Translations under genes and position numbers: made by a program
DNA from: Polyangiales bacterium
GTDB taxonomy: Bacteria > Myxococcota_A > Polyangia > Polyangiales > Houyiibacteriaceae
Direction: 5' to 3'
Assembly (NCBI GenBank): GCA_965227405.1
Contig: OZ245758.1
Coordinates: 3,060,338 to 3,124,337 of the forward strand
DNA length: 64,000 nt
The notes under the pieces: generated by a model
The model's database searches: none
What the model was told of the DNA's origin: nothing
What the model saw: the letters and a program-made list of their open reading frames with translations, nothing else
Shown here: positions 2,660-25,112 of the stretch, piece by piece
Numbering within the stretch: the first letter of the stretch is position 1
How the letters are laid out: each line of letters starts with the position of its first letter

Positions 2660-3517
2660 GTGGTAATTCGAACCCTTTTTCGCTATCCCGCCCCCATGAC
2701 CATCTTTCGAGGCGGGCTTTTCGAAGGCGACGTGGCGATTATCACCGGCGGCGGCACGGGAATCGGTCTGACCGTGGCCAAGGAGCTGGTGGCGCTTGGT
2801 GCCGATGTCGCGATTTGCGGACGACGTCTCGAACCCTTGGAAGCCGCAAGCGAAGAAATCAAAGCCGTGCGTGAAGGTGCGCGTGTGCACTTCGCAACGT
2901 GCGACATCCGCGACTACGAAGCCGTCGAGACCTTTGTGGATGGCGTGAAGGACGCACTCGGCAAAGTCGACATTCTCGTCAACAACGCGGGCGGTCAGTT
3001 TCCGACCACGGCGCAGCATCTCAAGTCCAAGGGCTTCGAAGCTGTGGTGCGCAACAACCTCGTGGGCACCTGGAACTTCACACACGCTGTCGCAACGCGC
3101 GCGTTCATTCCTCAGAAGCGCGGACGCATCGTCAACGTGATCGCGCAGGTCGCGCGCGGCTTTCCGGGAATGGTGCACACGGGTGCTGCACGTGCGGGTG
3201 TGGACAACATGACCAAGACGCTGTCGATCGAATGGTCGCAACACGGTGTGCGTGTAAACGCGGTCGCACCGGGGGTGATCAAAACCAGCGGAACCAAGCA
3301 GTACCCACCGCAGCTGTTGGAAGACGCCAAGAAGGCCAATCCATTGAAGCGTTTGGGTGCGCAGGAAGAAGTCTCGCACCTGATCGTGTATCTCGTGTCG
3401 AAGCAGGCCGACTTTGTGACCGGACAAACGTTCTATATCGATGGTGGCGCGAGCTTGTGGGGCGAGCAGTGGCCCATTCCGGAAGACATTCCGAAGTTCC
3501 CGCCCTACGAGATCTAG
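2660..3517 (+). CDS. SDR family NAD(P)-dependent oxidoreductase (2,4-dienoyl-CoA/enoyl reductase-like)
   Basis: TGGGTGIG Rossmann motif, NNAG, YxxxK-like region; alternative ATG start at 2693; TAG stop. Confidence 0.85.
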   Translation: MVIRTLFRYPAPMTIFRGGLFEGDVAIITGGGTGIGLTVAKELVALGADVAICGRRLEPLEAASEEIKAVREGARVHFATCDIRDYEAVETFVDGVKDALGKVDILVNNAGGQFPTTAQHLKSKGFEAVVRNNLVGTWNFTHAVATRAFIPQKRGRIVNVIAQVARGFPGMVHTGAARAGVDNMTKTLSIEWSQHGVRVNAVAPGVIKTSGTKQYPPQLLEDAKKANPLKRLGAQEEVSHLIVYLVSKQADFVTGQTFYIDGGASLWGEQWPIPEDIPKFPPYEI

Positions 3518-6877: not shown

Positions 6878-7761
6878 TCACGCCCTTGGCTGCGCGCTTG
6901 GCGTTTTCGGTACGCTTCAGCCACCGCGACGATCAACTCCAGCGGTTCGGCAAACCACGCAGCATCGATCTTTCCTGCAACAAGTCCGTCCGCGAGCACC
7001 AGCTGCAAACAACGACGCGGTGGCGAGTTCTCTCGTCCCGGCGGTTGATGTTGGGACTCGCGAAACTCACCGACGGAAGGCCAGTTGAACGCGCGCGGTC
7101 CTTGCGGAAGTCCAACCACACAACCATCGGGCGCAAGGACCAGCACGCGCGGCTTGCGCGAACGAAGTCGAATCGAGCGCCAGTTGGACGCCAGTGCGAC
7201 GGGAACACTCGCCCCCACCACCACACCAGCAGCCGCAGCGCCAACAGCGACGAGTGGGATGCCCGTGAGAGCGCCGGCATACAGACCGGCGAGTCCGCCC
7301 GCGGAACCTGCTGCAAAGAGATCGAGACTGCGTCGCCACCAACCACCTGGACCGGCACCGACGGGGACCTCCAGTGCACCGGGAAGGTCGCCGCGTTCCA
7401 ACACCCGCTGCATCAACGCGTCGGCTTCGAGAAGCGGTCGTCGTGGACCCATGTCGCGGTATCCACGTTGTGCGATCCGACTGCGCACTTGCGTCGCCAG
7501 TGCGTCGAGATCGGTGACACCTGCGGGTAGATCTTGCGGACGAATCTCGAACCATGGTGGGTCGGGTGGCTTGCGCGGCACCAACACAAACGCGCGTTTG
7601 GGGGCTTCGGCGGGCACTAGCGCGACCCCGAACACTTGGTCCCACGTCGCGTCGAACGACGTCCCCGATTGGATAAAGGTCACGCCGTTTGCGGTCAGTT
7701 GCGTGCCTCGACGCACGGCTGGGTCGGAGATGTGAAGTCTCGCTTTGACCCAGTCATCCAT
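6874..7761 (-). CDS. Hypothetical protein with Gly/Ala-rich hydrophobic segment
   Basis: Long ORF; ATG at 7761 gives sensible divergent arrangement with helicase; alternative starts 7842/7881. Confidence 0.4.
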   Translation of the reverse strand: MDDWVKARLHISDPAVRRGTQLTANGVTFIQSGTSFDATWDQVFGVALVPAEAPKRAFVLVPRKPPDPPWFEIRPQDLPAGVTDLDALATQVRSRIAQRGYRDMGPRRPLLEADALMQRVLERGDLPGALEVPVGAGPGGWWRRSLDLFAAGSAGGLAGLYAGALTGIPLVAVGAAAAGVVVGASVPVALASNWRSIRLRSRKPRVLVLAPDGCVVGLPQGPRAFNWPSVGEFRESQHQPPGRENSPPRRCLQLVLADGLVAGKIDAAWFAEPLELIVAVAEAYRKRQARSQGRD

Positions 7762-7840
7762 CTTTCTGAACCGTGGCACACAACTGAATCGCTCGCTGTC
7801 CGATATGAGCAATCGGATGAACCGTGCTAACACTGCGCGC

Positions 7841-9199
7841 ATGATCAGACTCCGATTTGTCGGAGGCACCATCGAGATCACGGGGGCCGAAGAGGACGCG
7901 AGCTTTCCGCGAGCGCGGTGGGACAGCCGCGCGCGTTGCTTTCGAGCGCCCGGTTTCGCCTACGGCGACATCGTGATGCATCTGGTCCGAAGCGAAACCC
8001 CATACGAAGACGAAGCGCGCAACTACGCCGAGCTGCCTTCCGGTTTGCGCGTGCATCGCGAACCGCGTCCCTACCAACGTGCCGCGCTTCAGCAATGGCG
8101 AAAGAACCGCGGGCGCGGTGTCGTTGTTCTGCCAACAGGTGCGGGCAAGAGCCACGTTGCGATGATGGCGGCCGATGCGACGCGTCGTGCAACGCTCGTT
8201 GTGGCGCCGACTTTGGATCTCGTGCGTCAGTGGTACGACCTGCTTCGTTCGAGCTTCGGTTTGGATGTGGGCATTGTTGGTGGGGGTGAGCACGACGTAC
8301 GTGACCTGACCGTAACCACGTACGACTCGGCGTACATCCACATGGAGCACTTGGGTGCGCGGTTTGGATTGATCGTGTTCGACGAGTGCCACCACTTGCC
8401 TGGTGAGTCGTACACGTTGGCTGCGAAGCAGTGCCTGGCGCCTTACCGCTTGGGGTTGACGGCTACGCCTGACCGTCAAGATGGTCGGCACGAACTGCTC
8501 AACGAGTTGATCGGACCGATTGTGTATCGCGAAGAGATCGTCGGGATGAAAGGCGACTACCTCGCGGAGTACCGAACCGAGCGCATCTCGGTGGAGCTTT
8601 CGCCCGAAGAACGTCAGCAATACGAAGATGCGCGCCGCGTGTACCTCGCGTTCATCACCTCACAGGGCATCCGACTCAGCTCGCCGGGAGGATGGACCGA
8701 TTTCATCAAGCGTTCGTCGCGTTCGGAAGCCGGTCGACGCGCGATGGCGGCGTACCGCAAGCAGAAGAAACTCGCGTTCGCTGCACCTGCGAAGCTCGAC
8801 TACGTCTCGTTCTTGCTTGAGCAGCATCGCGACGATCGTTCGATTGTGTTCACGTCGGACAACGCGACTTGCTACGAGATTTCGAAACGCTACCTGGTTC
8901 CAGCGATCACGCACCAAACCAAGGTCAAAGAACGCAGCCACATCCTCGAAGCGTTTGCTGCAGGTACGTATCGTGCCGTTGTCACCTCCAAAGTGCTCAA
9001 CGAAGGCGTCGATGTTCCGGATGCAAACGTAGCGATCGTCGTCAGTGGTAGCGGCAGCGTCCGTGAACACGTGCAGCGACTCGGTCGCGTGCTGCGTAAA
9101 AAGGAAGGTAAGCGCGCCACGCTGTACGAGTTGATCACCGCGCGCACCGGCGAGGCGTACACCAGCGAGCGACGGAGGGATCACGTTGCTTACCGCTGA
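7841..9199 (+). CDS. XPB/Ssl2-like superfamily-2 DNA helicase (DEAH box)
   Basis: Motif I VVVLPTGAGKS, motif II DECHHL, LGLTATPDRQDG (RED-motif position), helicase C-terminal domain. Confidence 0.8.
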   Translation: MIRLRFVGGTIEITGAEEDASFPRARWDSRARCFRAPGFAYGDIVMHLVRSETPYEDEARNYAELPSGLRVHREPRPYQRAALQQWRKNRGRGVVVLPTGAGKSHVAMMAADATRRATLVVAPTLDLVRQWYDLLRSSFGLDVGIVGGGEHDVRDLTVTTYDSAYIHMEHLGARFGLIVFDECHHLPGESYTLAAKQCLAPYRLGLTATPDRQDGRHELLNELIGPIVYREEIVGMKGDYLAEYRTERISVELSPEERQQYEDARRVYLAFITSQGIRLSSPGGWTDFIKRSSRSEAGRRAMAAYRKQKKLAFAAPAKLDYVSFLLEQHRDDRSIVFTSDNATCYEISKRYLVPAITHQTKVKERSHILEAFAAGTYRAVVTSKVLNEGVDVPDANVAIVVSGSGSVREHVQRLGRVLRKKEGKRATLYELITARTGEAYTSERRRDHVAYR

Positions 9200-10382
9200 T
9201 CTCGTGCGCGCGTTTCGTCGCAAGACAGACTTGAAGCTGCGCAAGTTCGATAAGAAGACGCGCGACAAAGCGCTCGAACTCAGCGGTGCCTACTTGAACC
9301 TCGCGAGTGCGGGTCTCGAGTCGTCACGTCAGGAGCTGATGGAAGCGTTTTCGGGCGTGGAAGTTCCCGTACGCGATCAGAAGCTTGCAGACGGACTACG
9401 AAAGTTGGTGCTGGATCGCTGCACGTTTGAAGTGCCTTCGGAAGATCCGGTTTCGCTTCGCGCGAAGGTGTTTGAACGAGCCGCACGCTGGCGTGAAGAG
9501 CGGCGCTTCGATCGTGCTGCGTTGCTTGCTGAGGTGGCGGCGGAAGTCGATCTCGAACCGGATGTTCTCGCGAAGCTTCTCTACGCAGACTTGAAGGCGG
9601 CGCATCGCTTAGTCGAGTTCGCAGAGACCAACGCCAGTGGTTTGGTTCGTGAGTACCAGCTCGGACAGATCCAAGCGGTGTTGCTCAAGGCCGAGCGCGT
9701 GGTGGTCAACGTCGAATGTCAGGACGCGTCGGCGTATCGAAATCTGTTTCGGAAGCTCAAGTTTCATCGTTTGCTGTACACGATCGAAAAGAAGGGGAGT
9801 GGTTACCGGATGGTGATCGATGGGCCCTTCAGCATGTTTAGCGCGTCGACCAAGTACGGGTTGCAGCTGGCGATGATCGTGCCGGCGATTCGTGCATGTG
9901 AGCGTTGGTCGTTGGACGCGGATGTTCGATGGGGCAAGGACCGCGCGAAACTGCGCTTTCACGCGGAGGGTGGCAGCGAAGACGGTGCGGAGCCTGCGCC
10001 CTTGCCCAATGACGTCGAGAAGCTTTTGGAGAAGTTCAAGAAGCGCTTCAAGGACGGCAAGACCAAGTGGAAGCCCGCGCGTAGCAAAGCGATCCTGTCG
10101 TTGCCCGGTGTGGGTGTGTGCGTTCCCGACCTCGTGTTCACGCGCGCGAAGGTGAAAGTGCACCTTGAAGTGATGGGCTTTTGGAGTCGTGCTGCGGTGT
10201 GGCAGCGCGTCGAGTTGATCCAAGGTGGTTTGGACACACCGGTGCTCTTCGCCGTGCCGAAGCGACTGCGTGTGAGCGAAGCCGTATTGCCCGAAGACGT
10301 CCCTGGAGCCTTGTACGTGTACAAAGGCGTGATGAGCGTGAAAGCCATCGAAGAACGCCTCGACGGCTTCATCGATCAGTGA
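9186..10382 (+). CDS. Bax1-like / DUF790 family putative nuclease partner of XPB helicase
   Basis: 398 aa ORF overlapping helicase stop by 14 nt; size, charge pattern and gene context match Bax1/DUF790; no motif verified. Confidence 0.45.
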   Translation: MLTADLVRAFRRKTDLKLRKFDKKTRDKALELSGAYLNLASAGLESSRQELMEAFSGVEVPVRDQKLADGLRKLVLDRCTFEVPSEDPVSLRAKVFERAARWREERRFDRAALLAEVAAEVDLEPDVLAKLLYADLKAAHRLVEFAETNASGLVREYQLGQIQAVLLKAERVVVNVECQDASAYRNLFRKLKFHRLLYTIEKKGSGYRMVIDGPFSMFSASTKYGLQLAMIVPAIRACERWSLDADVRWGKDRAKLRFHAEGGSEDGAEPAPLPNDVEKLLEKFKKRFKDGKTKWKPARSKAILSLPGVGVCVPDLVFTRAKVKVHLEVMGFWSRAAVWQRVELIQGGLDTPVLFAVPKRLRVSEAVLPEDVPGALYVYKGVMSVKAIEERLDGFIDQ

Positions 10383-10451
10383 TCCCGGAGGGCTTCGAAC
10401 CCTCGACGCACCGATTTAGAGTCGGCTGCTCTACCCCTGAGCTACAGGATC
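10380..10451 (-). tRNA. tRNA, class I, 72 nt (no encoded CCA), hand-folded anticodon CUA (amber-reading), Lys-like backbone with A73
   Basis: Minus-strand read GATCCUG-UA-GCUC-AGGGGUA-GAGC-A-GCCGA-CUCUAAA-UCGGU-GCGUC-GAGGG-UUCGAAG-CCCUC-CGGGAUC-A; 7-bp acceptor with one G-U, U8, A14, GG18-19, U33, A37, GTTCGAA T-loop. Confidence 0.75.
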
Positions 10452-10996: not shown

Positions 10997-13042
10997 TCAG
11001 TCGGTCACGGTTGGTGGCGTCGGCACCGCCATCAACGTCGAGTCGAAGTTCCGCTCGTTGTTGTCGAACGCCACACCGCTGAACCGATCGAAATCGTAGT
11101 CCTCGATCTGCACGTTGATGCCGATCAAGTTTCCCGAAACGGTTCCGTTGTTCAGGTTGAGTGTGCCGCCCACCGGAAACGGGTTGCCCATCTCGTCGGC
11201 GCCGAACGCCACTTGAGCACCGATCAGTTCGTTGTCCGCGATTTGGAAGTTCGTGACGTCGACCGCTGCCGAGTCGTAGATCCCCATCCCGACTCCACCG
11301 ATGAAGGACTCACAGCCGCGATCGACACAACCCGCGCGAAACGTCTCCTGAAGTGTGAGGTCACGAATGGTCGCAACACTTCGCTCGCCGAACGCCACCA
11401 AGCTGATGTTCTGGTTGAGATCGAGGAAGAGTCGGTCGAGCTGTAGCGGTGATTCGTCGAGCCAGAGCGCGCCGCCTGCCGCGGTAAGCGGATGGGAGAA
11501 CGTCGCGATGACCGATACGTCGCTGCCGGTCACCTCGGACTCCGAAATCGCGAGGCCGTAAATCTCATTGTTCTCCAGCAACACTCGCTGAAGCGTTCCT
11601 CGTGAACCGCTGAGAAAAATCAAACCAAACGCAAAGTCTTCTTCGCCGTAGTCGCCACCCGAACCGCCATCCAGGATCTGTATGTCGGTCAGCACCGCCT
11701 CGGCGCCTTCGTTGACCGACATGCCCACCGTGAAGGCAGCGATCACCGTGACGCGTGTCATCTCAACGCGCGTTCCTTCGGTGCTGGCTTGCAGTCCGTA
11801 GCCTTCTTGGTCATCCGCTCCGGGAAACGCGATGAACACGTCCTCCGCAACCAGCTGCCCACCGCGCGTCACCACGATGCCGGCCGGAATCGACTCGGCG
11901 ATCAACGTGCGACGCAATGTCGTAGACGCACCGTCAATCACGGCAACACTCGATCCGATGTCACCGACGATCTCGGCGAGGTAGGTATCCTCGAGCAAGA
12001 GCGACGTGCCTTCGTCCGCCGCGAGTGCACCGATCTCCGCGTTCACGTCGAACAGCGTTCGGCGCACTTCGACGGTGGCGCCGCTGGCGGCTTCGAGCCC
12101 GCGACCTCCGGTGGGAATCAAGCCAATGAAGTGAGCTCCCAACACCGAGTCTTCGAACGTTGCGTTTGCGGCGAGCACCTGCGCGGAGAGGTCGAGGTGG
12201 CCACGAAAGACCGAGTTGCGAACGGTGAGTCGTGCATCCGGACCGTCCGCGCCGACACCTACGTTGAGAAATCCGCCAATGCGATCGTTGGTGATGCGTG
12301 CGACCACGTCTTCCACAACGAGTTCGCCGAAGGTGGCCAGCGATGCTTCGGCGAGATCCACCAGCGCGACACCACGCACCGTCGCACTGCCGTCTCGCTG
12401 TACGACGATGCCGTGGCGTGGTCCTCGCATTTGCAGGTCTTCGATCACGACATCGGTCGCAAACACATCCACGATGGCGCCGTCATCCGCTGGTGTTGTC
12501 GCAATGATCTGCGTGGCGGCGGCACATGCTCCGCGAATCGTCACGGGTCGGTTGAGCGAGAGGTTCTCCTCTTCGTACGTTCCTGCTGCGACCAGGATTG
12601 CATCGCCGCTACTCGCCGATTCGATCGCCTCTGCGATCGTTCCAAAGGGTGAGCTTTCGGTACCGTCTCCGTCGGCACCTTCTTCGACGTAGACCGCTCG
12701 CGTTACACCCTCGGGAATCGAGGGGAAGCCCGAAGCGCAGCTGGTGCCCACCGAACGACAAAACTCCTCGCCGAGAAAATGCGCTTCGTGATCGTCGCAA
12801 TCATCGAACCCATCGGGATAGGGCTCACAGAAGGCGGGTAGGCCTTCGTCGGCGATCAAGGTCCACCCTTCGGGGCACGCTCCGTCGGCGAGAAGGTTCG
12901 CCTCGGCTGCCGGTTCCGGAAGCATCGGCGGTTCGAGCACAGATGCATCGGGCATGGCGTCCATGCCGCCGTCGAGCATGGGCATGGCGTCGTCGTCCCC
13001 GCAGCCCAGAGCCACGACAAGAAGAATGGTGAGCCCCCGCAT
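10997..13042 (-). CDS. Secreted lipoprotein with right-handed parallel beta-helix (pectate-lyase-fold) repeats
   Basis: MRGLTILLVVALGCGDDD lipobox; DGTESSPFGTIAEAIESASSGDAILVAAGTYEE motif typical of beta-helix proteins. Confidence 0.65.
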   Translation of the reverse strand: MRGLTILLVVALGCGDDDAMPMLDGGMDAMPDASVLEPPMLPEPAAEANLLADGACPEGWTLIADEGLPAFCEPYPDGFDDCDDHEAHFLGEEFCRSVGTSCASGFPSIPEGVTRAVYVEEGADGDGTESSPFGTIAEAIESASSGDAILVAAGTYEEENLSLNRPVTIRGACAAATQIIATTPADDGAIVDVFATDVVIEDLQMRGPRHGIVVQRDGSATVRGVALVDLAEASLATFGELVVEDVVARITNDRIGGFLNVGVGADGPDARLTVRNSVFRGHLDLSAQVLAANATFEDSVLGAHFIGLIPTGGRGLEAASGATVEVRRTLFDVNAEIGALAADEGTSLLLEDTYLAEIVGDIGSSVAVIDGASTTLRRTLIAESIPAGIVVTRGGQLVAEDVFIAFPGADDQEGYGLQASTEGTRVEMTRVTVIAAFTVGMSVNEGAEAVLTDIQILDGGSGGDYGEEDFAFGLIFLSGSRGTLQRVLLENNEIYGLAISESEVTGSDVSVIATFSHPLTAAGGALWLDESPLQLDRLFLDLNQNISLVAFGERSVATIRDLTLQETFRAGCVDRGCESFIGGVGMGIYDSAAVDVTNFQIADNELIGAQVAFGADEMGNPFPVGGTLNLNNGTVSGNLIGINVQIEDYDFDRFSGVAFDNNERNFDSTLMAVPTPPTVTD

Positions 13043-13087
13043 GCATCTTGTCTGAACGCCGGTGGGAGGCTTCGCAAGCACGGTGGG

Positions 13088-15673
13088 CTAGGCGACCTCG
13101 TGTACCGCGATTGCCGGGTGAATCAGATATGCGCCGCGTCGGGTCAGAATCGCGTCGTGGAGACCGAGTTTGCGCAATGTGCTGATGGCAACGCGTAACC
13201 GGTTGGCTGCTGCGCGCGGCAACATGCGTTCTCCGGGCCATCCTGCAGCGACCAGCGCGTCACGTGGGATGGGTTCGTCGGGCTGCTCGCGATGCGCCGT
13301 GACCAGCGCGTGCAACACGTTGATCAGCGCATCACGACCTTCGAGCTCGATACGCTCGCCACCAGGCGGAGAGAACCAACTGGCGTCACTGCCCACGCTC
13401 AGTGCGTCACCCGAAGCGGGCTCCGTCGTCGTTTGGCGTGGCTTGACTCCTGAAAGCGTGCGCGCGGAGAACAAGACATCAGCATTCCGCCGAATCGGAG
13501 ACTCGCTGTCCCCAGCGCGTGCTTGATCGAGTCGTGCATCGCACTGGTCGCGAAGCGAGGAGGCGCGCGAAGCGTCGGTTTCGGCTTCCGCGCGTTCCAG
13601 ATGACCGCGTTGCAACTGCACCGCCAGTAGCAAGAAAGGATCGTGCAGTGTCGCGATCTGCTCTTCGGCTCGCTCCAGTGCATCGCGTCCGCGCTCGATA
13701 GCGCCGGTTCGGACTTCAGCTGCACCGAGATACGCCAAGAACAGGGCTTCGAAGCGAGGGTCCTTCGCTTCGACCAGCATCTGCACCGCAAGTTCAAGTT
13801 CGTGTCGAACCTCGTCAACGGGTGCACCTGCTTCCGATCGCGCAAGCGCTCGGTAGCCTCGAAACGCACCTTCGTACCGTCGCGCGCCGACGCGTCGAAA
13901 CGCGGCAATGGCGGCGTCGTACGCAGCGACAGCTTCGTCCAAGTGCAGACGCACATGATGAAGAATCCCGCGGTTCGCCGTGGTGAATGCCGAGCCGAAT
14001 CGATCGGCGACTTGGTCGTGAATCGCTTCGGCCTGCGCGAAGCAAATCATCGCGTCGTCGAACCGACCTTGGTCAATGAAGAGGTTGCCCAGGTAGGCAG
14101 TCACCAAACCTTCTTCGCGAAGAGCGCCTGCACGTTGAAGGAGTGCACGCGCCCTCTCTTCTGCCGCTTGCGCTTCGTCGACCTGTCCAAGTGCCGCCCG
14201 TGCAGCTCCGAGCGCACTCAAGGTTTGGGCTTCTTCGACCGGATCCGCGTCTCCACTCAAGAGCGGTAATGCGCGTTCGTAGTGTTCGATGGCTTCTTTG
14301 AGTTCGCCGGCAACAAGCGCCACGGTTCCGCGCGCACGTTCGGTTCTGGCTTCGAGTGCGGGAAGGTCCGAGGCGCGTGCCAACTCCAGTGCGCGATCCA
14401 GATCGGCAATCGCGTCATCGAGCTTGCCCGCTAGTCTGCGAGCGTCACCGCGATTGACGCGTGCACGAATCTCCTCGCTCGGCGCAAGCGGAGCTTTCAG
14501 TGCCTCTCCGAGCATCGCTTCGTACTCTTCGTAGGGACCTTGCGCGAGCATCGCGGGTCCCAACGCGATCGCTGCTCGAATCGACGCGTCGACGTTCGCA
14601 CGGGCTGCGGCTTTCAGGTTCTCGCGTTCCCGTCGAAGCTCTTCCCACGCCGACACCGTTTCCGGGCCGTGCAGCGCACTTTGCGCCGCCTCTCCGAGTG
14701 TCGCGTAGTAGCTCGCGTGTCGCTTCGCCGCGTGGACATCGTCCAGCTGTTCTGCTGCGAAATCGCGAATGCTGAGGAAGAGCCCGAAGCGACCGTCGCC
14801 TTCGGCTCGAAGAAGCGATTTTTCGAAGAGCGATTGGAGCACGTCCATGACCGACGCGTCGTCGATCGCCACGACTGCTTCCGCGGCTTCGAGGTCGAAC
14901 CCACCGCGGAACACGGAACACTGCGAGAGCACCGAGCGCTCTAGGTCGTCGAGCAGGTTCCACGACCATTCGATCGCACCGTGAAGCGTGCCTTGCTGTC
15001 CGCGCAGCAACTTGAAGCGAGCCTCGAGCCGTTGCAGCAACGTGTCGGCACCGAGGAACACCAAGCGCGGTGCCGCGAGTTCGAGGGCGAGTGGAATGCC
15101 GTCGAGTTGTTCGACGACGCGTGCAACCGTGTCGACGTCGTTGCGGCGAAGCGCAAATCCGTGTCGTAGACGACGCGCGCAACCCAGTAGCATCTGTACG
15201 CTCTCCGAGTCTGCGGGCGCGTGGGCTTCCGGAAGTCCAAGAGGGCCCAGTTCGATCACGCGTTCGTGATCGACGCGAAGCCGTTCGCGTGACGTGACCA
15301 GGATGCGGAGTTCAGGCGCGCCTTGGCTCCAACGCGCGATCATGGGAGCGGCTTCGAGTACCTGCTCGAAGTTATCCAACACCAGCAACGCGGGACCCAG
15401 CGCGTGGAGTGCGAGTTCGACGTTGCCCGCTTTGCCGAACGCTTCGCCGCTCGGAAGTTCAAGTGTTTCGGCGACGACTGCAGCCACGGCGTCCGCATCG
15501 AGCGCATGACTGAGGTCGCAGAAAAACGTGAGGTGATGGCGCGGCAGAAATTCGCGTGCGAGACGAGACTTTCCAATTCCCGCGGGACCGGTGAGCGTGA
15601 CAAGACGTGCGTCGCCGGAGAACGCTGTTCCCAATTCGTCGAGCTCTGCGTTCCGCCCCACGAAAACGCTCAT
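13088..15673 (-). CDS. Multidomain transcriptional regulator: AAA/NB-ARC-type ATPase + TPR repeats + C-terminal OmpR/PhoB-type winged helix
   Basis: FVGRNAELDEL, P-loop GPAGIGKS; long TPR-like alpha-helical middle; C-term RLRVAISTLRKLGL...ILTRRGAYLI matches trans_reg_C; start ambiguous (15673, 15814 or 15880). Confidence 0.7.
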   Translation of the reverse strand: MSVFVGRNAELDELGTAFSGDARLVTLTGPAGIGKSRLAREFLPRHHLTFFCDLSHALDADAVAAVVAETLELPSGEAFGKAGNVELALHALGPALLVLDNFEQVLEAAPMIARWSQGAPELRILVTSRERLRVDHERVIELGPLGLPEAHAPADSESVQMLLGCARRLRHGFALRRNDVDTVARVVEQLDGIPLALELAAPRLVFLGADTLLQRLEARFKLLRGQQGTLHGAIEWSWNLLDDLERSVLSQCSVFRGGFDLEAAEAVVAIDDASVMDVLQSLFEKSLLRAEGDGRFGLFLSIRDFAAEQLDDVHAAKRHASYYATLGEAAQSALHGPETVSAWEELRRERENLKAAARANVDASIRAAIALGPAMLAQGPYEEYEAMLGEALKAPLAPSEEIRARVNRGDARRLAGKLDDAIADLDRALELARASDLPALEARTERARGTVALVAGELKEAIEHYERALPLLSGDADPVEEAQTLSALGAARAALGQVDEAQAAEERARALLQRAGALREEGLVTAYLGNLFIDQGRFDDAMICFAQAEAIHDQVADRFGSAFTTANRGILHHVRLHLDEAVAAYDAAIAAFRRVGARRYEGAFRGYRALARSEAGAPVDEVRHELELAVQMLVEAKDPRFEALFLAYLGAAEVRTGAIERGRDALERAEEQIATLHDPFLLLAVQLQRGHLERAEAETDASRASSLRDQCDARLDQARAGDSESPIRRNADVLFSARTLSGVKPRQTTTEPASGDALSVGSDASWFSPPGGERIELEGRDALINVLHALVTAHREQPDEPIPRDALVAAGWPGERMLPRAAANRLRVAISTLRKLGLHDAILTRRGAYLIHPAIAVHEVA

Positions 15674-15770
15674 GTGCACGGCGTAGCGCGCTCCTTCAGC
15701 GGAGCAACTCCCGATCGCAGACACGCGCGCAGTGTCGGGAAATCGCTCTCTTCGGACTCCTGACGGATGC

Positions 15771-17123
15771 TCAGAGACCCAATGCGCCAGTATCGATTGA
15801 GGGAAGGTTTCCATCGCTGAGGCTTCCGCCAATGGCCAAAGGGTCAATTTGAGCGGCGTCGTTGGTCGCGGTCTCGCCAAGTCGCGTGACGGAGTCGTCC
15901 CACCCGCCGAGCGGAATCAAGCCAGCTGCTTCTTGTGCGAGACATCCCAAGTCGTCGCCTTGCACGCTGACGTTGTTGAGCGCGATGTCGCTGAGCACGC
16001 CACTGGATGCGAGGTCGACCAAGAGACCGATTCGCGGATGACTTTCGAGCGTGACTTCGCGAAGGGTGTTGGGTCCCGTCGGTTCGAGGAGTTGGATTCC
16101 GTCGCCAGCTTGAACAGCGGCGATCTCTCCAAAGATCGTGGTCTGTTCGACACTGGATGCGAGGTTGGTTCCATCCAACGTGATGTTCGATGAGAGAACC
16201 GACGCGACAGCAGTCACGCCGTTTGTTGTGAAGGTCCCTCCGGCCACCATTACGTCGTCGCTGCGTTGAATCCAGAGTCCGCCGTAGCGGTTGTCGTGCA
16301 CATCCAGATCGGTGTGGGTGCCGGGCGATGCGTCGTGCAGTGCTGCGAGATCCGCGTTGGCGACTTCGACGTTGGTGGTCGTCGCCATGGCGTTGTTCGT
16401 AAACACCATCCCGTATGCAGGAAGCGGCTGGAGTCCTTGCGCAAAGCCGTCGAAGCTGACGTCGTTGAGCGCGACCGACCCACCATCGACGTACAGTCCT
16501 GTGCCAGTCACATCGGTCAACGCACCGCCGTCCCAAGTCAGTGTGGTTCCCGCCACGATGCCGCCCCATGGCCCAACCTTCTCCATGCGGAGGTCGACGA
16601 TCGATGCGTCGGTGGCGTTGAGCATCACCACGCCGTACGCACCTTCGTTGGGTTCTGCGAAAGGTGGGAACGTATCGGCGTCGTCCGGTCCAACGATCGT
16701 GATGCCGATCAAGCGGCTGCCGGCACCTTCGACTCCGATGCCGATTCCGCGCTCCAGGAGAATGCGAACGTTCTGCACGGTGACATCCTCTGCAGTGCTT
16801 CGAACGCCTACCGACCCACGTGTTTCGATCGCGATGTCGACCAGTGTGGCGCCGTCACCCAACGTGACAACGGGAGCGTCGCCGGCACCGATCAATGCGC
16901 TTTCGGCTCCGCTTCCACCCAAAGTCACGCCTTCGGGAACATCGACGTTCGCACCTTCGACGCGACAGTTTCCGATACGCACGTTCGCGCCACGCCGCGC
17001 TGAACTCAGCTCGCGAACCAACGACACGCTGTCGCAGATCTCGGGATCGCTGCAGCTTGTGGCGAGCGCCAACAAGCAGATCAGGAAGAAGGGACTGGGG
17101 CCGGCGAAGGTCTCGCGCGTCAT
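15771..17123 (-). CDS. Secreted lipoprotein with parallel beta-helix repeats
   Basis: MTRETFAGPSPFFLICLLALATSC lipobox; repeated G-rich beta-helix rungs. Confidence 0.65.
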   Translation of the reverse strand: MTRETFAGPSPFFLICLLALATSCSDPEICDSVSLVRELSSARRGANVRIGNCRVEGANVDVPEGVTLGGSGAESALIGAGDAPVVTLGDGATLVDIAIETRGSVGVRSTAEDVTVQNVRILLERGIGIGVEGAGSRLIGITIVGPDDADTFPPFAEPNEGAYGVVMLNATDASIVDLRMEKVGPWGGIVAGTTLTWDGGALTDVTGTGLYVDGGSVALNDVSFDGFAQGLQPLPAYGMVFTNNAMATTTNVEVANADLAALHDASPGTHTDLDVHDNRYGGLWIQRSDDVMVAGGTFTTNGVTAVASVLSSNITLDGTNLASSVEQTTIFGEIAAVQAGDGIQLLEPTGPNTLREVTLESHPRIGLLVDLASSGVLSDIALNNVSVQGDDLGCLAQEAAGLIPLGGWDDSVTRLGETATNDAAQIDPLAIGGSLSDGNLPSIDTGALGL

Positions 17124-17277
17124 GAGCCCTGCATAACGCGCGGGGCTGGACCCGTCACGGCTCGGGGAGCTGGTTTAATGCAATTAACGCCTTGAAATCA
17201 CGGCGCATTAACTCGCGGCTAATGCATCTGAAGGCCATTTCGTCTCCCGCGACAGCACGTCGCAGGAGGTTTTCGAG

Positions 17278-18600
17278 ATGCGATTTCTGCTTACGAGTTT
17301 GAGTCTTTTGGTGGCGTTGGGCTGTGGGTCCAGCGGTGGCGGTTCGACCGATCCGGGGGTGCGTCCGCCCGGAGGCAACGACTTGCCCTGTCGTGCTGCG
17401 CAATGCGGCGATGCTCGGGTCCGCAACGCCATTCCGACGCGGGACCTGGTCCGAATCGACTTTGGTGGTGCCGCGGGAACACCCGGAGCGCTCGCCGACT
17501 ACTCACCTTTCTACGAAGAGACCGAACTCTACGTCGACGACATCAACGACATCATCGACGAGATCTTTTCGGACTTGGAGTTTGCTGCAGGTGAAGAGCC
17601 GACGGTCGAAGGCAGCGAACACATCTGGCGTGCGAGCGAGGGCGACGTTGATGTCGTGCTCGACATCGAAGAGGTGAGCGCGACCACGTTCCACCTCAGC
17701 TACTACGAAGGTGCACCGGGCTTCGAGCCTGACACGACGATGCCGATCGTTGACGGCGAGGTCACGCTGGATGGCGACGACGCAGTTCAGAGCTTCGAGC
17801 TCTTTGTCGACCTCGACGTGTTGAGCGCTGCGGATCCGAGCGTTGTGGCGACGGGCGACATGTACCTTGCGGCAGCACCCTTCGCTGGAGGCATCGCCGA
17901 AGTGATCTTCGATCTCCGCGAGGTGTCTTGGGAGGGCGACGCAGCCGAAAGCAGCCAAACCACGTACTGGGTGTTCGGTGTCGATGACCACGCGCTCGAA
18001 TACTTGGCCGACATCGAAGACTTGGACGGCGATGTTGAGTTGACTGCGTTCGTGCGGTGGGACGACGAAGGCGGACGCTGGGACAGCCACGCGCTCTACG
18101 ACCACGGCGAACTGGGTTTGGTCGATTACATCACGACCAACTGCTGGGACTTCAGCGCAGCTGAGCTCTTCCACGGCGAAGCGTGGATTCAGGACGCAAC
18201 GCTCGACTTCTACGGTGAGCTCGATGGCAGCGAAGCGAACTGTCACTTCGGACCGGTTTCGGGACACCCCAATCCGAGCGCGGACTTTGACGATCTTCCT
18301 GGCGAGGGTGAGTGGCAAGCGATCGACTTCCTCGGATGCGACCCTCTCGATCCGAGTTGCGAAGACGAGTGCGACCCTGCTGTCGAAGATTGCTGTGACC
18401 CCGCGTTCGAGGATTGCGAGCCCGAGTGCGACCCTGCTGTCGAAGACTGCTGTGACCCAGCGTTTGAAGACTGCTGTGACCCCGCGTTCGAGGATTGCTG
18501 CGACCCGGCGTTCGAGGATTGCTGCGACCCGGCGTTCGAGGATTGCTGCGACCCCGAGTTCGAAGACTGTTGCGATCCCGATTTCGAGGACTGCTTCTAA
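17278..18600 (+). CDS. Highly acidic lipoprotein with C-terminal tandem vicinal-cysteine octapeptide repeat (CCDPAFED)n
   Basis: MRFLLTSLSLLVALGCGSS lipobox; last 80 aa are nine C(C)DPxFED units. Confidence 0.7.
   Translation: MRFLLTSLSLLVALGCGSSGGGSTDPGVRPPGGNDLPCRAAQCGDARVRNAIPTRDLVRIDFGGAAGTPGALADYSPFYEETELYVDDINDIIDEIFSDLEFAAGEEPTVEGSEHIWRASEGDVDVVLDIEEVSATTFHLSYYEGAPGFEPDTTMPIVDGEVTLDGDDAVQSFELFVDLDVLSAADPSVVATGDMYLAAAPFAGGIAEVIFDLREVSWEGDAAESSQTTYWVFGVDDHALEYLADIEDLDGDVELTAFVRWDDEGGRWDSHALYDHGELGLVDYITTNCWDFSAAELFHGEAWIQDATLDFYGELDGSEANCHFGPVSGHPNPSADFDDLPGEGEWQAIDFLGCDPLDPSCEDECDPAVEDCCDPAFEDCEPECDPAVEDCCDPAFEDCCDPAFEDCCDPAFEDCCDPAFEDCCDPEFEDCCDPDFEDCF
18358..18597 (+). repeat. Coding tandem repeat, 24-bp unit (tgctgtgaccccgcgttcgaggat) x~9 encoding CCDPAFED
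   Basis: Direct inspection of 18358-18597. Confidence 0.85.
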
Positions 18601-18986
18601 TGTCGGGTCAAGACAACGACGAGCGCCACCACCATTTGGAAGGTGCGCACAACGAAGACGTGCACTTGGATGCAGACGCAACTTGCGTCATCGATCCCTC
18701 GGTGGTCGCTGCGGTGGCCGCGAGTCTGAACACCGCGGCGCCGCGTTTGGGTACAGGTTCGGCAACTGTCACGACCACCCTGCCCACGGCACGCTACGAC
18801 GCACTTTCGGGTGAAGTTGTCGACGCGGTGCTTTGGCACAGCGAAACATCTGACTCGGACGACCTGCAACCGCCCATGCGCTCCAACGTGTTTGGACTTG
18901 TGCTCGCGATGGTTGTGTTGATCGGCAGCGTCCTTTGTGTGGGCGTGGCGAGTTGCTACGCCGCTGTTCCACACGTCGGCGGTTGA
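18600..18986 (+). CDS. Small His-rich protein with C-terminal TM helix
   Basis: ATG at 18600 overlaps TAA stop (TAATG); N-term MSGQDNDERHHHLEGAHNEDVH; C-term VFGLVLAMVVLIGSVLCVGV. Confidence 0.4.
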   Translation: MSGQDNDERHHHLEGAHNEDVHLDADATCVIDPSVVAAVAASLNTAAPRLGTGSATVTTTLPTARYDALSGEVVDAVLWHSETSDSDDLQPPMRSNVFGLVLAMVVLIGSVLCVGVASCYAAVPHVGG

Positions 18987-18989
18987 GCC

Positions 18990-20426
18990 ATGCGTGTTTG
19001 GACCTTGGGGCTGATGTTGATGGCCTGCGGTGGAGGCGGTGCGCCGACCGACGACGCAGGCACCGCAGATGTCGGAATGATGGACGCGGGATTGATGGAC
19101 GGTGGCGACATGCGCGACGCCGGACCTGACGGCGAGACACCCGACGCAGGAGAGGACGCTTCGGTCTGCGTCTGTGATTCGCCTCCAGCAGACGAGTGCG
19201 CCGATGCGACGACGCTGCGGGAGTACGCGCGTACGGGTGAATGCGTAGGCGGGGAATGCGAGTACGCGACTCGCGAAACAGAATGTGAGGTGCCGGCTCC
19301 AACCTGCGTGGATGATCTCGTGACGACGTGGTCGGACGCGGGATGCATGGACGGCGCGTGCGTTGCGACGCCTACGGAACTCAGCTGCAGCAACGGTTGC
19401 TGTGACGACGGTTGCTGCGAGATGACTCCCTCGAACAGCGATGAACTCGGTGGGTTGGGATCGAGTGTTTTGACCTTGGAGCCACCCGATGGGTTTACGT
19501 TCAACACCGACACGGATTGCGAAGGCACCACAGCGATTGGCGAGTGCACAGCAGTCGACGTGTTTGATTCCCCCGATGTGTGTGTATGTCGGTCGGAACG
19601 ACTGCGGATCGGCGGCACGCTGAACGTGGCCGGTTCACGGGCACTCGCGCTCTTCGCACGCGAAACCATTCTTGTGCGCGGAGTTCTCGATGCGTCCGGA
19701 ACCGGAACCATCTCGGGACCTGGTGCAGCGTTTGAGTACTCGACGGTTGCCACAGGATCCAACGGTGGCGCCGGAGGAAGCTACGGCTCCGAAGGTGCAG
19801 GCGCAGCGGCGTCTGTCTACGGCAACAGCGAGATCGTGCCCTTGCAAGGTGGCATGGACGGGCAGGACGCATGCGGAAGCCGTCGAGGCGGTGGAGGCGG
19901 TGGTGCGCTGCAGTTGTCGGCCGGGATCGACATCGAAGTCACTGGAATCATCGACGTGAGTGGCGGTGGCGGAGCCGGCGGAAACTCGAGTTCCAGTTGC
20001 AATGGCGGAGCGGGCGGAGGCAGCGGCGGTGCGGTGTTGATTGAAGCTCCTGCCGTGGAGATCACAGGCACCGTCGTCGCGAATGGTGGCGGTGGAGGAT
20101 CCGCGGCAACCAACTCGTCGTCCGGACGAAGTGGCTTCAACGGAAGTACGACCGGTGGCGGTGGAGGCGGCAGTGCACCCGAGTGCGGTTGTCCTCTCTT
20201 CGGTTACACCAACGGTGGAGACGGTGGGCGTGGGGCAAGCGGAACGTTTGGGCCTTCGTTCGGTGAGTCGTCGGACAGCGTAGGCGGCTGCATCGGAACG
20301 TGTGTTGTCGGTGGCGGTGGTGACGGTGGCGGCCTGGGCCGGATTCGCGTCAACACCACCAGCGGGTGTTTGTGCGGTGGCACGTTCTCACCAAACGCGA
20401 GCTTTGGCTCGGTGACCGTCGACTGA
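18990..20426 (+). CDS. Cys-rich / Gly-rich secreted lipoprotein
   Basis: MRVWTLGLMLMACGGGG lipobox; Cys-rich N-half, GGGGAGG poly-Gly C-half. Confidence 0.6.
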   Translation: MRVWTLGLMLMACGGGGAPTDDAGTADVGMMDAGLMDGGDMRDAGPDGETPDAGEDASVCVCDSPPADECADATTLREYARTGECVGGECEYATRETECEVPAPTCVDDLVTTWSDAGCMDGACVATPTELSCSNGCCDDGCCEMTPSNSDELGGLGSSVLTLEPPDGFTFNTDTDCEGTTAIGECTAVDVFDSPDVCVCRSERLRIGGTLNVAGSRALALFARETILVRGVLDASGTGTISGPGAAFEYSTVATGSNGGAGGSYGSEGAGAAASVYGNSEIVPLQGGMDGQDACGSRRGGGGGGALQLSAGIDIEVTGIIDVSGGGGAGGNSSSSCNGGAGGGSGGAVLIEAPAVEITGTVVANGGGGGSAATNSSSGRSGFNGSTTGGGGGGSAPECGCPLFGYTNGGDGGRGASGTFGPSFGESSDSVGGCIGTCVVGGGGDGGGLGRIRVNTTSGCLCGGTFSPNASFGSVTVD

Positions 20427-20442: not shown

Positions 20443-20508
20443 ATCGGCGGGGATCCATCCCCGCCGATCCTCCTTAACCCAAAGCGGGCCGAGTAAATTC
20501 CTCGGCCC
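20443..20508. terminator. Two GC-rich hairpins between convergent genes (11-bp stem 20443-20468; 8-bp stem 20486-20508), putative bidirectional terminators
   Basis: atcggcgggga-tcca-tccccgccgat and gggccgag-taaattc-ctcggccc perfect inverted repeats; no strong U-tract. Confidence 0.35.
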
Positions 20509-20519
20509 GCAAAGGGGAT

Positions 20520-21155
20520 TCAACTACGCGCGCTGTGCAGCATCTTGGCGTACACGACCGGTGCAAGCGTGCCGATGAAGAGCAGCGCCATGCACACGAC
20601 CACGCCGGTTACGCCCTCGAGCACGAAGCCAGCGCCGATCATCGCCACGCTCGAGATCACGATCGACTTCGCAGCGAAACGATGCGTGAGCTTCCAGATG
20701 GTGGGATCGTTCATGGTTGCCTTGAGCCGGTAGCCCATCACTCGGTTGGGCTCGGTCAGCGGCATCATGCCGGCGATCGCAATCATCAAGATTCCGATCA
20801 GCCCAAACATCGCCGAGAGCAAGAAGGCCATCGTCGGGGTGAGCGCTGCATGAATCATCATGGCGTGCACACCGAAGAAGAAGCCGGCCATCGCTGCCAT
20901 GGTCCATCCGAAGAGCGCCTGAGTCTTTTCAGACTCGCGCAGCGCAATGAACGGAAGGCCTAGGCTCAGCGCCAACGAGAGAAGCGGCATGAGCAGCAGC
21001 CCCACGGCCTTGGGCGCGAACCCATCGGGCATGCCCTCGGGACCCCAATGGATGGGCATCCTGTCCGGCAAGCTGGGCGCAGCGACCCACGAAACACCCA
21101 GGCCCGCGACGCTCGCGAGCACTGAAACCACTTTTGATCGAGTCCGATTCCACAT
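20520..21155 (-). CDS. SdpI/YhfL family membrane protein (DUF1648 + SdpI-like)
   Basis: MPIHWGPEGMPDGF DUF1648 motif, multiple TM helices; ATG 21155 preceded by GGAGG. Confidence 0.65.
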   Translation of the reverse strand: MWNRTRSKVVSVLASVAGLGVSWVAAPSLPDRMPIHWGPEGMPDGFAPKAVGLLLMPLLSLALSLGLPFIALRESEKTQALFGWTMAAMAGFFFGVHAMMIHAALTPTMAFLLSAMFGLIGILMIAIAGMMPLTEPNRVMGYRLKATMNDPTIWKLTHRFAAKSIVISSVAMIGAGFVLEGVTGVVVCMALLFIGTLAPVVYAKMLHSARS

Positions 21156-21344
21156 GACAACCTCCACCGGGGAGAAATGCAGGAGGTGGACCAGTCAAAG
21201 TGTTGGAATTTATCGAGTTTTCGAGACGATCGTGGCGAGATCGGGGAAATTCGCCCGGATCGTTTCGATCCCGCAACCCTGTGATTTCAGGTACTTAGCG
21301 AGCATGGGTCGGTTCATTAATGAACCTGTCCCCAGAATTTACAC

Positions 21345-22292
21345 CTAGTTGGTGCAGGTGATGCCTTCGGCGCTTCCGATCGCGGGGTAGCGGTAGACGG
21401 CCGCGTAGCACATCTCCTGAAGGCTGCTGTCGCCGTAGCCCACGTCGTCAGCGGTCGGGTTGTCGTAGCGACACAGCACGTTGATTCGGTCGCCGGTGCC
21501 CATCGGAAGTGCGTCGAACGTGGTGTAGCGCTGATCGTCGAACGAGTAGAGGTCCTCGTGCAGCGTGGTGAGTTCGCCGTCTCGCTCAGCGGTCACGTGC
21601 ATGAACGTTCCAAACTGGTGCATGTGCGGCATCACGGCGAACACGTTGACGTCGCTGCCCATGGTGCAGCGCCCGTTGATCTCGTGGTTCATTGAACGCG
21701 CCGGAATGTTGAAGAACTCTTCGCCGGCCAACACAACCTCGGCTTCGTTCACGACGTCTTCTTCGTCCATCAGCACAGCTTCGATCGCCGAGTATCCCGT
21801 CAAGCGATCGCCGTCGGTGTTGAAGAGGTGCAGGTTCAGCAGCAGCTGGTTGCCCGGCTCCAAACGAATCGCCACGCCCTCGGGCAACGTCAGCGGCTCG
21901 GTGCCAACTCCGGATCCGAAAATCATGTTGTCGGCGTTGGTAAACGCTGCACACGCGGTCGTTCCATCAGGGCGCAGCGCGCTGTCGCTGTACGTCAACA
22001 CGGTATGGTGCGTGCCCAGCGGTGCAACCGGACGAAACTCTCGGATGAACAAGGTCTCTTCGACGGTGAGACGGACACACACGTAGCCCTCCGAGCCACC
22101 GTCCATGCTCCAGTCACCGCCGACCAGTTCGATCACGCGCTCGGTCGTCGCGTCGATCGCCGGGACATCCGCCCCCGGTGCATCAACCGCAGGAACGTCC
22201 GGCATGGTGCCAGCGTCGTTCATCGGTGTGCCGTCGTCGTCTCCACACGCCATCGCCAGTACAAGGCCGCAGAGCGCGATTCGTCGGTGCAT
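21345..22292 (-). CDS. Hypothetical secreted lipoprotein
   Basis: MHRRIALCGLVLAMACGDDD lipobox. Confidence 0.55.
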   Translation of the reverse strand: MHRRIALCGLVLAMACGDDDGTPMNDAGTMPDVPAVDAPGADVPAIDATTERVIELVGGDWSMDGGSEGYVCVRLTVEETLFIREFRPVAPLGTHHTVLTYSDSALRPDGTTACAAFTNADNMIFGSGVGTEPLTLPEGVAIRLEPGNQLLLNLHLFNTDGDRLTGYSAIEAVLMDEEDVVNEAEVVLAGEEFFNIPARSMNHEINGRCTMGSDVNVFAVMPHMHQFGTFMHVTAERDGELTTLHEDLYSFDDQRYTTFDALPMGTGDRINVLCRYDNPTADDVGYGDSSLQEMCYAAVYRYPAIGSAEGITCTN

Positions 22293-22532
22293 GCGTCGTC
22301 CCAAAATGTCCTCCCAAGAGCGCTGAGCAGCATGTCATGAGGCGCTCAACTCGTCAGATACAACCCGCGCTAGAGCGCTTGATTTCACTGTGTTTGCGAC
22401 CACGAAAAACGTTGCAAAAACCTTCCCGAAAACAGGTCGCAAAGCGGCAGGATTTCGCAGTTGTAAACATTTGAAATTGCAGGGCAATTATCCCCTCTAA
22501 ACGGTTGCCTGAGAGGGGGTGCAGAGCTATAG

Positions 22533-25112
<2,580 letters not shown>

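Follow-up and report, generated by a model that had tools for sequence, protein, structure and literature searches.

The 64,000-nucleotide stretch of Polyangiales bacterium DNA analysed here (contig OZ245758.1; hereafter the window) contains three consecutive plus-strand genes, the first of which, gene 1, is predicted to encode an acidic lipoprotein ending in a tail of ten short loops, each bounded by two cysteines. The explanation of the locus that we favour, and to which we give an even chance as a whole, is that of an exported acidic lipoprotein with ten disulfide-closed loops as a polyanionic tail, produced from a divergent promoter linked to a regulator of the STAND type (signal transduction ATPases with numerous domains). 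The anatomy and evolution of the tail are well supported, whereas its function is inferred. The repeat itself is real, selected, lineage-restricted and of a new type, within the familiar theme of cysteine-rich secreted myxobacterial proteins. The parts of the locus are the following:

17264-17269, plus strand: Shine-Dalgarno sequence AGGAGG, read from the sequence, 8 nt 5' of the gene 1 ATG
17278-18600, plus strand: gene 1 (from the list of open reading frames), 1323 bp, 440 amino acids, acidic lipoprotein
17278-17325, plus strand: signal peptide and lipobox of gene 1, read from the sequence, with predicted lipidated Cys16 (LVALG-C)
17383-18336, plus strand: conserved core of gene 1, residues ~36-353
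18337-18594, plus strand: array of ten CX6C units (CDPxxEDC), with linkers EDE (18361-18369) and EPE (18418-18426)
18600-18986, plus strand: gene 2, 128 amino acids, predicted tail-anchored orphan membrane protein
18990-20426, plus strand: gene 3, 478 amino acids, predicted lipoprotein

All three open reading frames (ORFs) proposed in the preliminary description of this DNA were confirmed, including the coupling of genes 1 and 2, whose stop codon TAA and start codon ATG overlap as TAATG; a spacer of 3 nt separates the TGA of gene 2 from the ATG of gene 3. Three loci recur in the comparisons below. L006 comes from a Logan assembly of a different sample and carries the same three genes, with 98.3% nucleotide identity over 14 kb; L001 is the locus of P0002, a gene 1 homolog with 71% identity, and L010 contains a gene 1 homolog with 50% identity. 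The sequence CGCAGGAGG at the gene 1 Shine-Dalgarno site was unchanged in L001.

Anatomy and evolution of the repeat tail

The tail of gene 1 reads, in order, GCDPLDPSC-EDE-CDPAVEDC-CDPAFEDC-EPE-CDPAVEDC-(CDPAFEDC)x4-CDPEFEDC-CDPDFEDC-F. It therefore consists of nine CDPxxEDC units (5 CDPAFEDC, 2 CDPAVEDC, 1 CDPEFEDC, and 1 CDPDFEDC) preceded by a degenerate tenth unit, CDPLDPSC, at 18337. Nine CCDPAFED repeats had been described previously; nine units were indeed found at the peptide level, but the DNA does not contain nine contiguous perfect 24-bp copies, as the units are arranged as 1+2+7, with breaks at the EDE and EPE linkers, and Tandem Repeats Finder returned 7.0 contiguous 24-bp copies with 86% match. 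Only two units are identical in DNA, and a 57-bp higher-order duplication lies inside the array (18361-18417 and 18418-18474). A single cysteine opens and closes the array, and EDE and EPE are each placed between a closing and an opening cysteine. The repeat unit is best read as CDPxxEDC, a CX6C loop, the vicinal CC pairs being merely the junctions of abutting loops, since the ten loops follow each other with almost no linker. CX6C and CC were the only cysteine spacings present in the tail, CxC and CxxC being absent. In 90 amino acids the tail accumulates 20 cysteines and 36 aspartic plus glutamic acid residues, and lysine and arginine are absent from it.

Tandem 24-bp repeats are prone to mis-assembly from short reads, and the number of units could on this ground be regarded as an assembly artefact. 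However, the independently assembled gene 1 of L006 has the same length (1323 bp, 440 amino acids) and the same number of units, with 24 scattered substitutions (24 changed codons, 19 of them synonymous), and the units differ from each other in DNA, which makes collapse or expansion unlikely. The chance of an artefact, which the equal gene length in L006 excludes, is negligible.

A second possibility is that the array expanded neutrally as low-complexity sequence, through replication slippage of the 24-bp unit, and was tolerated at a disordered C-terminus. The predicted disorder of the tail is in agreement with this, as are the wide variation of tail length and type in the family, some members of which lack a tail, and the exchange of alanine and glutamic acid at position 4 of two adjacent units between the window and L006 (A419E and E427A; 18499-18570 in the window vs. 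11222-11293 in L006), an exchange that points to gene conversion or to a shuffling of units inside the array. In contrast, the pairwise codon differences among units 2-10 were mostly synonymous (118 vs. 29 non-synonymous) and the C, D, P, E, D, and C of the unit (six of its eight positions) never varied across these units; the synonymous excess together with the invariant positions argues against neutral slippage. The motif also persists in relatives, with 9 units at 71% identity and 3 units at 50%. Judging from these codon patterns, the repeat peptide is under purifying selection, and a neutral expansion is rather improbable.

The number and type of loops varied among relatives. P0002 displayed nine CDPxxEDC units with GDV linkers, P0003 (50% identity) three units, such as CDPESEVC, spaced by DDE, and P0121 four CX8C loops with 3-residue linkers. 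Copy number is thus the same in L006 as in the window and lower in L001 and P0003. Many family members end in one acidic CX4-8C loop located right after the conserved sequence PxxGEW, and a lone CX6C or CX7C loop in this place is widespread among them. The cysteine count of every complete family tail was even (0, 2, 4, 6, 8, 14, 18, 20, or 22). From this distribution, the array is best read as tandem copies of one acidic Cys-X6-Cys loop that was ancestrally present at the C-terminus of the family. Tandem identical octapeptides also resemble the multi-core precursors of ribosomally synthesised and post-translationally modified peptides, in which case small cysteine-containing peptides would be freed from the tail by proteolysis. 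Nevertheless, a modifying enzyme, a protease, and an exporter are all lacking in the conserved neighbourhood, the repeat ends a folded lipoprotein of 350 residues, and relatives carry one loop or none; such a precursor is very improbable and was rejected, as was the assembly artefact.

The array is also rare. Among GTDB species representatives, the back-translated pattern CCDPxFEDCCDP was found in the L001 contig alone, and the looser pattern CCDPxxEDCCDP was not found in the metagenome contigs of the Joint Genome Institute. No Pfam or NCBIfam match was obtained with the isolated tail, and no paper containing the repeat peptide was found in the literature search. The motif, which had been reported as unrecognised, matches no known family in Pfam, NCBIfam, PDB sequences, or the literature. 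As far as these searches reach, the CDPxxEDC array is nearly unique to this lineage.

Predicted export, core, and family of the gene 1 product

The N-terminus of gene 1 carries a lipobox (MRFLLTSLSLLVALG-C16) that displays the lipoprotein signature on reading of the sequence. Cys16 was invariant in an alignment of 61 gene 1 family members and is followed by a linker of glycine, serine, and proline. These features point to an exported, N-terminally lipid-anchored lipoprotein. The mature protein is strongly acidic, with 111 aspartic plus glutamic acid residues vs. 10 lysine plus arginine. In the AlphaFold2 model the core presents a long helix (77-104) packed against ~16 strands that form an antiparallel meander sheet, with predicted local distance difference test (pLDDT) values of ~85-97 for residues 40-340 and below 45 for the tail. 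Two pairs of cysteines are conserved in the core (Cys38/43 and Cys289/322), and the complete family signature was found in gene 1 (W117-R118, R260-W261...G265-G266-R267-x-D269-x-H271, T287-N-C289-W290, and PxxGEW, plus the four conserved cysteines).

Eleven relatives of gene 1 were retrieved by word-index search, the named ones all being called hypothetical; the three for which a source organism is given are proteins from metagenome-assembled genomes of Myxococcota. A profile search gave 116 matches among 1.84 billion representatives, 30 of them at E<=1e-30. No relevant Pfam or NCBIfam family was found in gene 1 or in the 61 family members (0 families at E<=0.1 in the NCBIfam scan of gene 1), and PDB sequence searches with gene 1 and with the profiles of the gene 1 and gene 3 families gave nothing significant, the best match being BamC (E=0.029). 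According to these comparisons, the core defines a small uncharacterised lipoprotein family, belonging to Myxococcota wherever the source is named. At the locus L004 (8084-13071, minus strand), the family member P0008 lies two genes from an eCIS_core protein of >2139 amino acids and is preceded by a Ser/Thr kinase-TPR protein.

Following export by Sec, Dsb enzymes would oxidise consecutive cysteines of the tail and close the loops C354-C361, C365-C372, C373-C380, and onwards along the array. During translocation, DsbA preferentially pairs cysteines that follow each other in the sequence, and it is because of this habit, together with the export signal and the invariant lipobox cysteine, that a disulfide is proposed for each loop. 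The even cysteine parity in a predicted exported lipoprotein fits disulfide loops better than free metal-binding thiols, and by the same export logic the core pairs C38/C43 and C289/C322 would also be disulfides. The product would therefore carry a free distal tail of ten small disulfide-stapled loops with 36 carboxylates and no basic residues. The function of the protein would be seated in the conserved core, ~320 residues in which a helix rests on a large and curved beta-sheet, and the most likely role of the tail would be that of a polyanionic appendage for hard divalent cations (Ca2+/Mg2+) or for a cationic or mineral surface.

The nearest described analogue of the tail is the repeat (TIGR04201) of TraA, as both consist of tandem cysteine-rich repeats in an exported myxobacterial surface protein. 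In TraA of Myxococcus xanthus these repeats lie between a PA14 domain and the C-terminal MYXO-CTERM anchor and were proposed to form a rigid stalk, the authors assuming that the repeat cysteines are oxidised to disulfides (PMC3325183). TIGR04201 was not found in gene 1 by the NCBIfam scan. The repeats of TraA are longer, whereas the units of gene 1 have 8 residues, its predicted anchor is N-terminal, and the distal end of its tail is free; with an N-terminal anchor and a free tail end, a stalk role of the TraA type does not apply. DUF7107 (PF23416) occupies the same C-terminal position in the gene 1 family members P0005 (E=1.4e-7) and P0004, and shares with the gene 1 tail an acidic character and an even number of cysteines. 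However, the gene 1 tail gave 0 matches to it at E<=10, and its unit has 8 residues and 2 cysteines vs. ~45 residues in DUF7107.

Conserved partners and the divergent promoter region

Upstream of gene 1 the following features were located:

13088-15880, minus strand: STAND-type regulator (Pfam AAA_16, AAA_22, TPR_12, TPR_MalT)
15771-17123, minus strand: right-handed beta-helix lipoprotein (Pfam Beta_helix, E=4e-7), divergent from gene 1
17175-17187, divergent intergenic region: box 1, inverted repeat TTAAT-GCA-ATTAA
17205-17225, divergent intergenic region: inverted repeat GCATTA-N9-TAATGC, with arms 17205-17210 and 17220-17225
17207-17215, inside the 17205-17225 inverted repeat: box 2, ATTAACTCG

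The order of the STAND regulator gene, the beta-helix lipoprotein gene, and the divergent gene 1 was kept in the window and L006, L001, and L010, that is, down to 50% gene 1 identity. The beta-helix lipoprotein has orthologs, likewise placed divergently, in L001 (54% identity) and L010 (43% identity), and orthologs of the STAND regulator adjoined the gene 1 homologs in both loci (65 and 56% identity, respectively). Conversely, gene 3 was found after gene 1 in no locus other than the window, L006, and L001, and gene 1 homologs in L002, L004, L005, L010, and L011 were not accompanied by it, so genes 1 and 3 were discarded as conserved partners. The gene 1 homologs of L002-L005 and L011 and the gene 3 homologs of L008 and L009 had unrelated neighbours. 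By this comparison of loci, it is not gene 3 but the genes of the divergent beta-helix lipoprotein and of the STAND regulator that are conserved partners of gene 1. The three-gene cluster initially described thus exists in the window, L006, and L001, but it is lineage-specific; genes 2 and 3 would be later additions to the operon. A second large beta-helix protein (10997-13081, minus strand; DUF1565/Beta_helix, 694 amino acids, Pel9A-like in the precomputed annotation) was located directly 3' of the STAND gene and is kept in L001 and L006; the conserved block may comprise the three minus-strand genes and gene 1.

The STAND gene lies 3' of the beta-helix lipoprotein gene and probably forms one operon with it. 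Its ortholog in L006 was called at 909 amino acids, with HTH_77, and the true start in the window is probably internal to the ORF 13088-15880. The regulator resembles STAND regulators of the MalT/AfsR type in its AAA_16 NTPase, its TPR_MalT-like repeats, and its position adjoining presumed target genes, but it differs from them in that a DNA-binding domain is not confirmed here; by eye only, its C-terminus resembles a winged helix.

The intergenic region between gene 1 and the beta-helix lipoprotein gene measures 154 bp and has a GC content of 46%, as compared to 61.5% in the whole window, a value lower than the 68% previously given. The first palindrome had been correctly placed at 17175-17187. 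The second, described as GCATTAA-N9-TTAATGC, is in fact GCATTA-N9-TAATGC, with 6-nt arms, although the 7-nt pair TTAATGC/GCATTAA does occur at 17175-17181 and 17205-17211. The patterns TTAAT-N3-RTTAA and ATTAAYTCG appeared once each in the window, L001, L006, and L010, always in the orthologous intergenic region only, and in 0 of 8 other loci. The two boxes are 32-33 bp apart and ~70-85 bp 5' of the gene 1 start, and ATTAAYTCG occurs 1 time in the 64-kb window vs. 0.16 expected. They are plausible regulatory sites, in line with the preliminary description, which had considered the AT-rich elements as candidate operators, and are probable binding sites of the co-conserved STAND regulator. Gene 1 would share its divergent promoter region with the genes of the beta-helix lipoprotein and of the STAND regulator, and the regulator would bind the two ATTAAT-type boxes there. 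Between 16900 and 20700, no sigma-70 promoter was detected by the promoter scan and no sigma-54 spacing (GG-N10-GC) by eye; Rfam gave no RNA element in the region.

Genes 2 and 3, alternative functions, and neighbouring features

Gene 2 has no signal peptide and contains one strongly hydrophobic segment at residues ~97-122 (nt 18888-18965), with a hydropathy maximum of 2.73. Owing to this C-terminal helix and the absence of a signal peptide, the product is predicted to be tail-anchored, with its His-rich N-terminus (His residues 10-12, 17, and 22) on the cytoplasmic side. The term "secreted", which had been applied to the whole cluster, does not apply to gene 2; genes 1 and 3 carry a signal peptide and lipobox. 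Compared with L006, gene 2 presented 8 synonymous and 3 non-synonymous changes (P ~0.0013), whereas in the overlapping antisense ORF of 125 amino acids 0 of 11 were synonymous; this substitution pattern rules out gene 2 as a spurious ORF. Its sole match among 5.8 billion proteins was its own cluster, Pfam and NCBIfam scans gave nothing relevant, and it is absent from L001, where the homologs of genes 1 and 3 are 8 bp apart with nothing between them. A zinc-binding anti-sigma factor was also considered for gene 2 and rejected: the HxxxCxxC motif is absent, there is a single N-terminal cysteine (C29), and no sigma factor gene is adjacent.

The CC pairs, the His cluster, and the acidic residues had been brought together under a single metal-binding theme. 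Such a theme would correspond to an extracytoplasmic metallothionein-like sponge, in which reduced cysteines together with aspartic and glutamic acids chelate Cu, Zn, and Cd, and the His-rich gene 2 product shares in metal handling. The 20 cysteines and 36 acidic residues of the 90-residue tail, the His cluster, and a Cu2_monoox_C-like lipoprotein 1 kb downstream would be consistent with it, and metallothioneins resemble the tail in their very high cysteine content, CC pairs, and short repeats. However, metallothioneins are cytoplasmic, rich in CxC and CxxC, and not dominated by aspartic acid, glutamic acid, proline, and phenylalanine, whereas the gene 1 product is predicted to be exported and lipid-anchored, its cysteine pattern is of the disulfide type, and its tail matched neither a metallothionein family nor any other in Pfam. 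The signal peptide and lipobox, the even cysteine parity of the family, and the CX6C spacing all favour disulfides, the CC pairs being loop junctions. In addition, the His cluster is predicted to be cytoplasmic and belongs to an orphan absent from the 71% relative, synteny with L001 and L010 does not extend to the copper monooxygenase-like gene or other neighbours and includes no genes of metal homeostasis, and neither metal efflux genes nor metal sensors are adjacent. The single theme is not supported, and a metal sponge is unlikely.

Gene 3 displays the lipoprotein signature on reading of its lipobox, MRVWTLGLMLMA-C13 (LMA-C13), followed by a linker rich in aspartic acid, alanine, and glycine, a cysteine-rich beta-hairpin module (~59-146), and a glycine-rich beta-solenoid domain (~147-478). 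This domain of ~330 amino acids has poly-Gly turns and ends in GRIRVNT..GC.C.G.FSP, the signature of its family. Strong homologs number ~40, are spread over Myxococcota (Labilithrix luteola among others), and are all called hypothetical; in an alignment of 40 sequences, the identity to gene 3 was 37-73%. AlphaFold2 modelled gene 3 as a beta-solenoid with a pLDDT of 89; Foldseek gave no match against PDB, and Pfam and NCBIfam scans returned nothing relevant. With respect to beta-helical adhesins (HMW1, EtpA, HxuA, and FHA) and the Gly-rich phage adhesin gp38, there was no sequence-family match, and the matches cover only 110-160 residues. The gene 3 product is a Sec/lipoprotein substrate and not a two-partner secretion or autotransporter passenger, and no two-partner secretion domain or autotransporter barrel signature was found in it. 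A surface-binding or adhesin-like role can reasonably be inferred, but no more than that. At the locus L008 (3923-7656, plus strand), the gene 3 family member P0022 comes after an extracytoplasmic function (ECF) sigma factor gene and a coiled-coil/transmembrane-looking protein of 452 amino acids, possibly an anti-sigma factor, which hints that some gene 3 family members are under ECF control.

The tail could also act through intermolecular disulfides, cross-linking the gene 1 protein to itself or to cysteine-rich envelope or matrix proteins such as that of gene 3. Chlamydial OmcA/OmcB and the keratin-associated CCxPx proteins are analogues of such cross-linking; CCDP fits the CCxPx pattern, cysteines are dense at the free distal end, and the co-transcribed gene 3 has its own cysteine-rich module. 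Nevertheless, even parity and closely spaced consecutive cysteines speak for closure within the molecule, a network is hardly conceivable in relatives that have one to three loops, and gene 3 is not a conserved partner of gene 1. Cross-linking of this kind is consequently doubtful.

Several points weigh against the explanation that we favour, a lipid-anchored protein with a polyanionic tail of disulfide-closed loops under STAND-linked control. No homolog gives the function of the core or of the tail. At position -3, the gene 1 lipobox (A-L-G-C) departs from the canonical sequence, and AlphaFold2 gives no structure to the tail, whose low pLDDT corresponds to predicted disorder. Parity and spacing are the only pointers to disulfide pairing, and composition the only pointer to cation binding, the loop matching no known Ca-binding motif or Pfam model. 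With regard to regulation, the C-terminal 170 amino acids of the STAND regulator have no Pfam match, so that its DNA-binding domain is not confirmed by Pfam here, and the box patterns come from the very sequences that also served for counting them, which makes them a phylogenetic footprint and not an independent test. A bolder form of the proposal would make the ten-loop tail a previously undescribed extracytoplasmic ion-binding module, amplified from one loop and placed under dedicated STAND control, that serves in Ca2+ or metal capture, mineral nucleation, or adhesion as a bacterial counterpart of acidic biomineralisation proteins; we consider this an outside chance.

Other features of the window lie around the cluster. 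A GC-rich hairpin (20484-20510) is located between the convergent gene 3 and a minus-strand gene for a DUF1648 and SdpI-family membrane protein (20520-21167), which share it; it resembles a terminator of the minus-strand gene and is probably the end of both convergent transcription units. The copper-related lipoprotein mentioned above (21345-22304, minus strand) contains a copper type II ascorbate-dependent monooxygenase C-terminal domain (PF03712, E=6e-10), a domain unusual in bacteria. The gene gyrB (22677-25112, plus strand) is situated 2.2 kb downstream of the cluster, after an intergenic region of 370 bp.

The only tRNA gene in the window (10379-10451, minus strand; 3097-3169, minus strand, in L006) has a CUA anticodon and so reads amber stop codons. 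It was labelled "tRNA-Pyl" by ARAGORN and scored 62 bits vs. the Rfam tRNA model; its cloverleaf is normal, with U33/A37 and a short variable loop. The gene is kept in the 98% strain L006 and absent from the L001 locus. Since TAG still terminates ~11 of the 41 long coding-like ORFs of the window, the molecule looks more like a suppressor-type tRNA than a sign of codon reassignment. Its gene abuts the 3' end of an XPB-Bax1-like helicase-nuclease pair (7745-10382, plus strand), composed of an XPB-type helicase (ResIII, XPB_DRD, and ERCC3 C-terminal domain) and a DUF790 protein.

As it stands, the gene 1 product is one more uncharacterised cysteine-rich secreted protein in a phylum rich in them. 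Two unannotated lipoprotein families of Myxococcota are defined here, each with a confident structural model, together with a conserved regulator-promoter-target module that is directly testable. If the tail binds cations or mineral, it would offer a binding motif that is very compact, constrained by disulfides, and easy to synthesise, and it would cleanly illustrate how a protein appendage is built through amplification of a single terminal loop.

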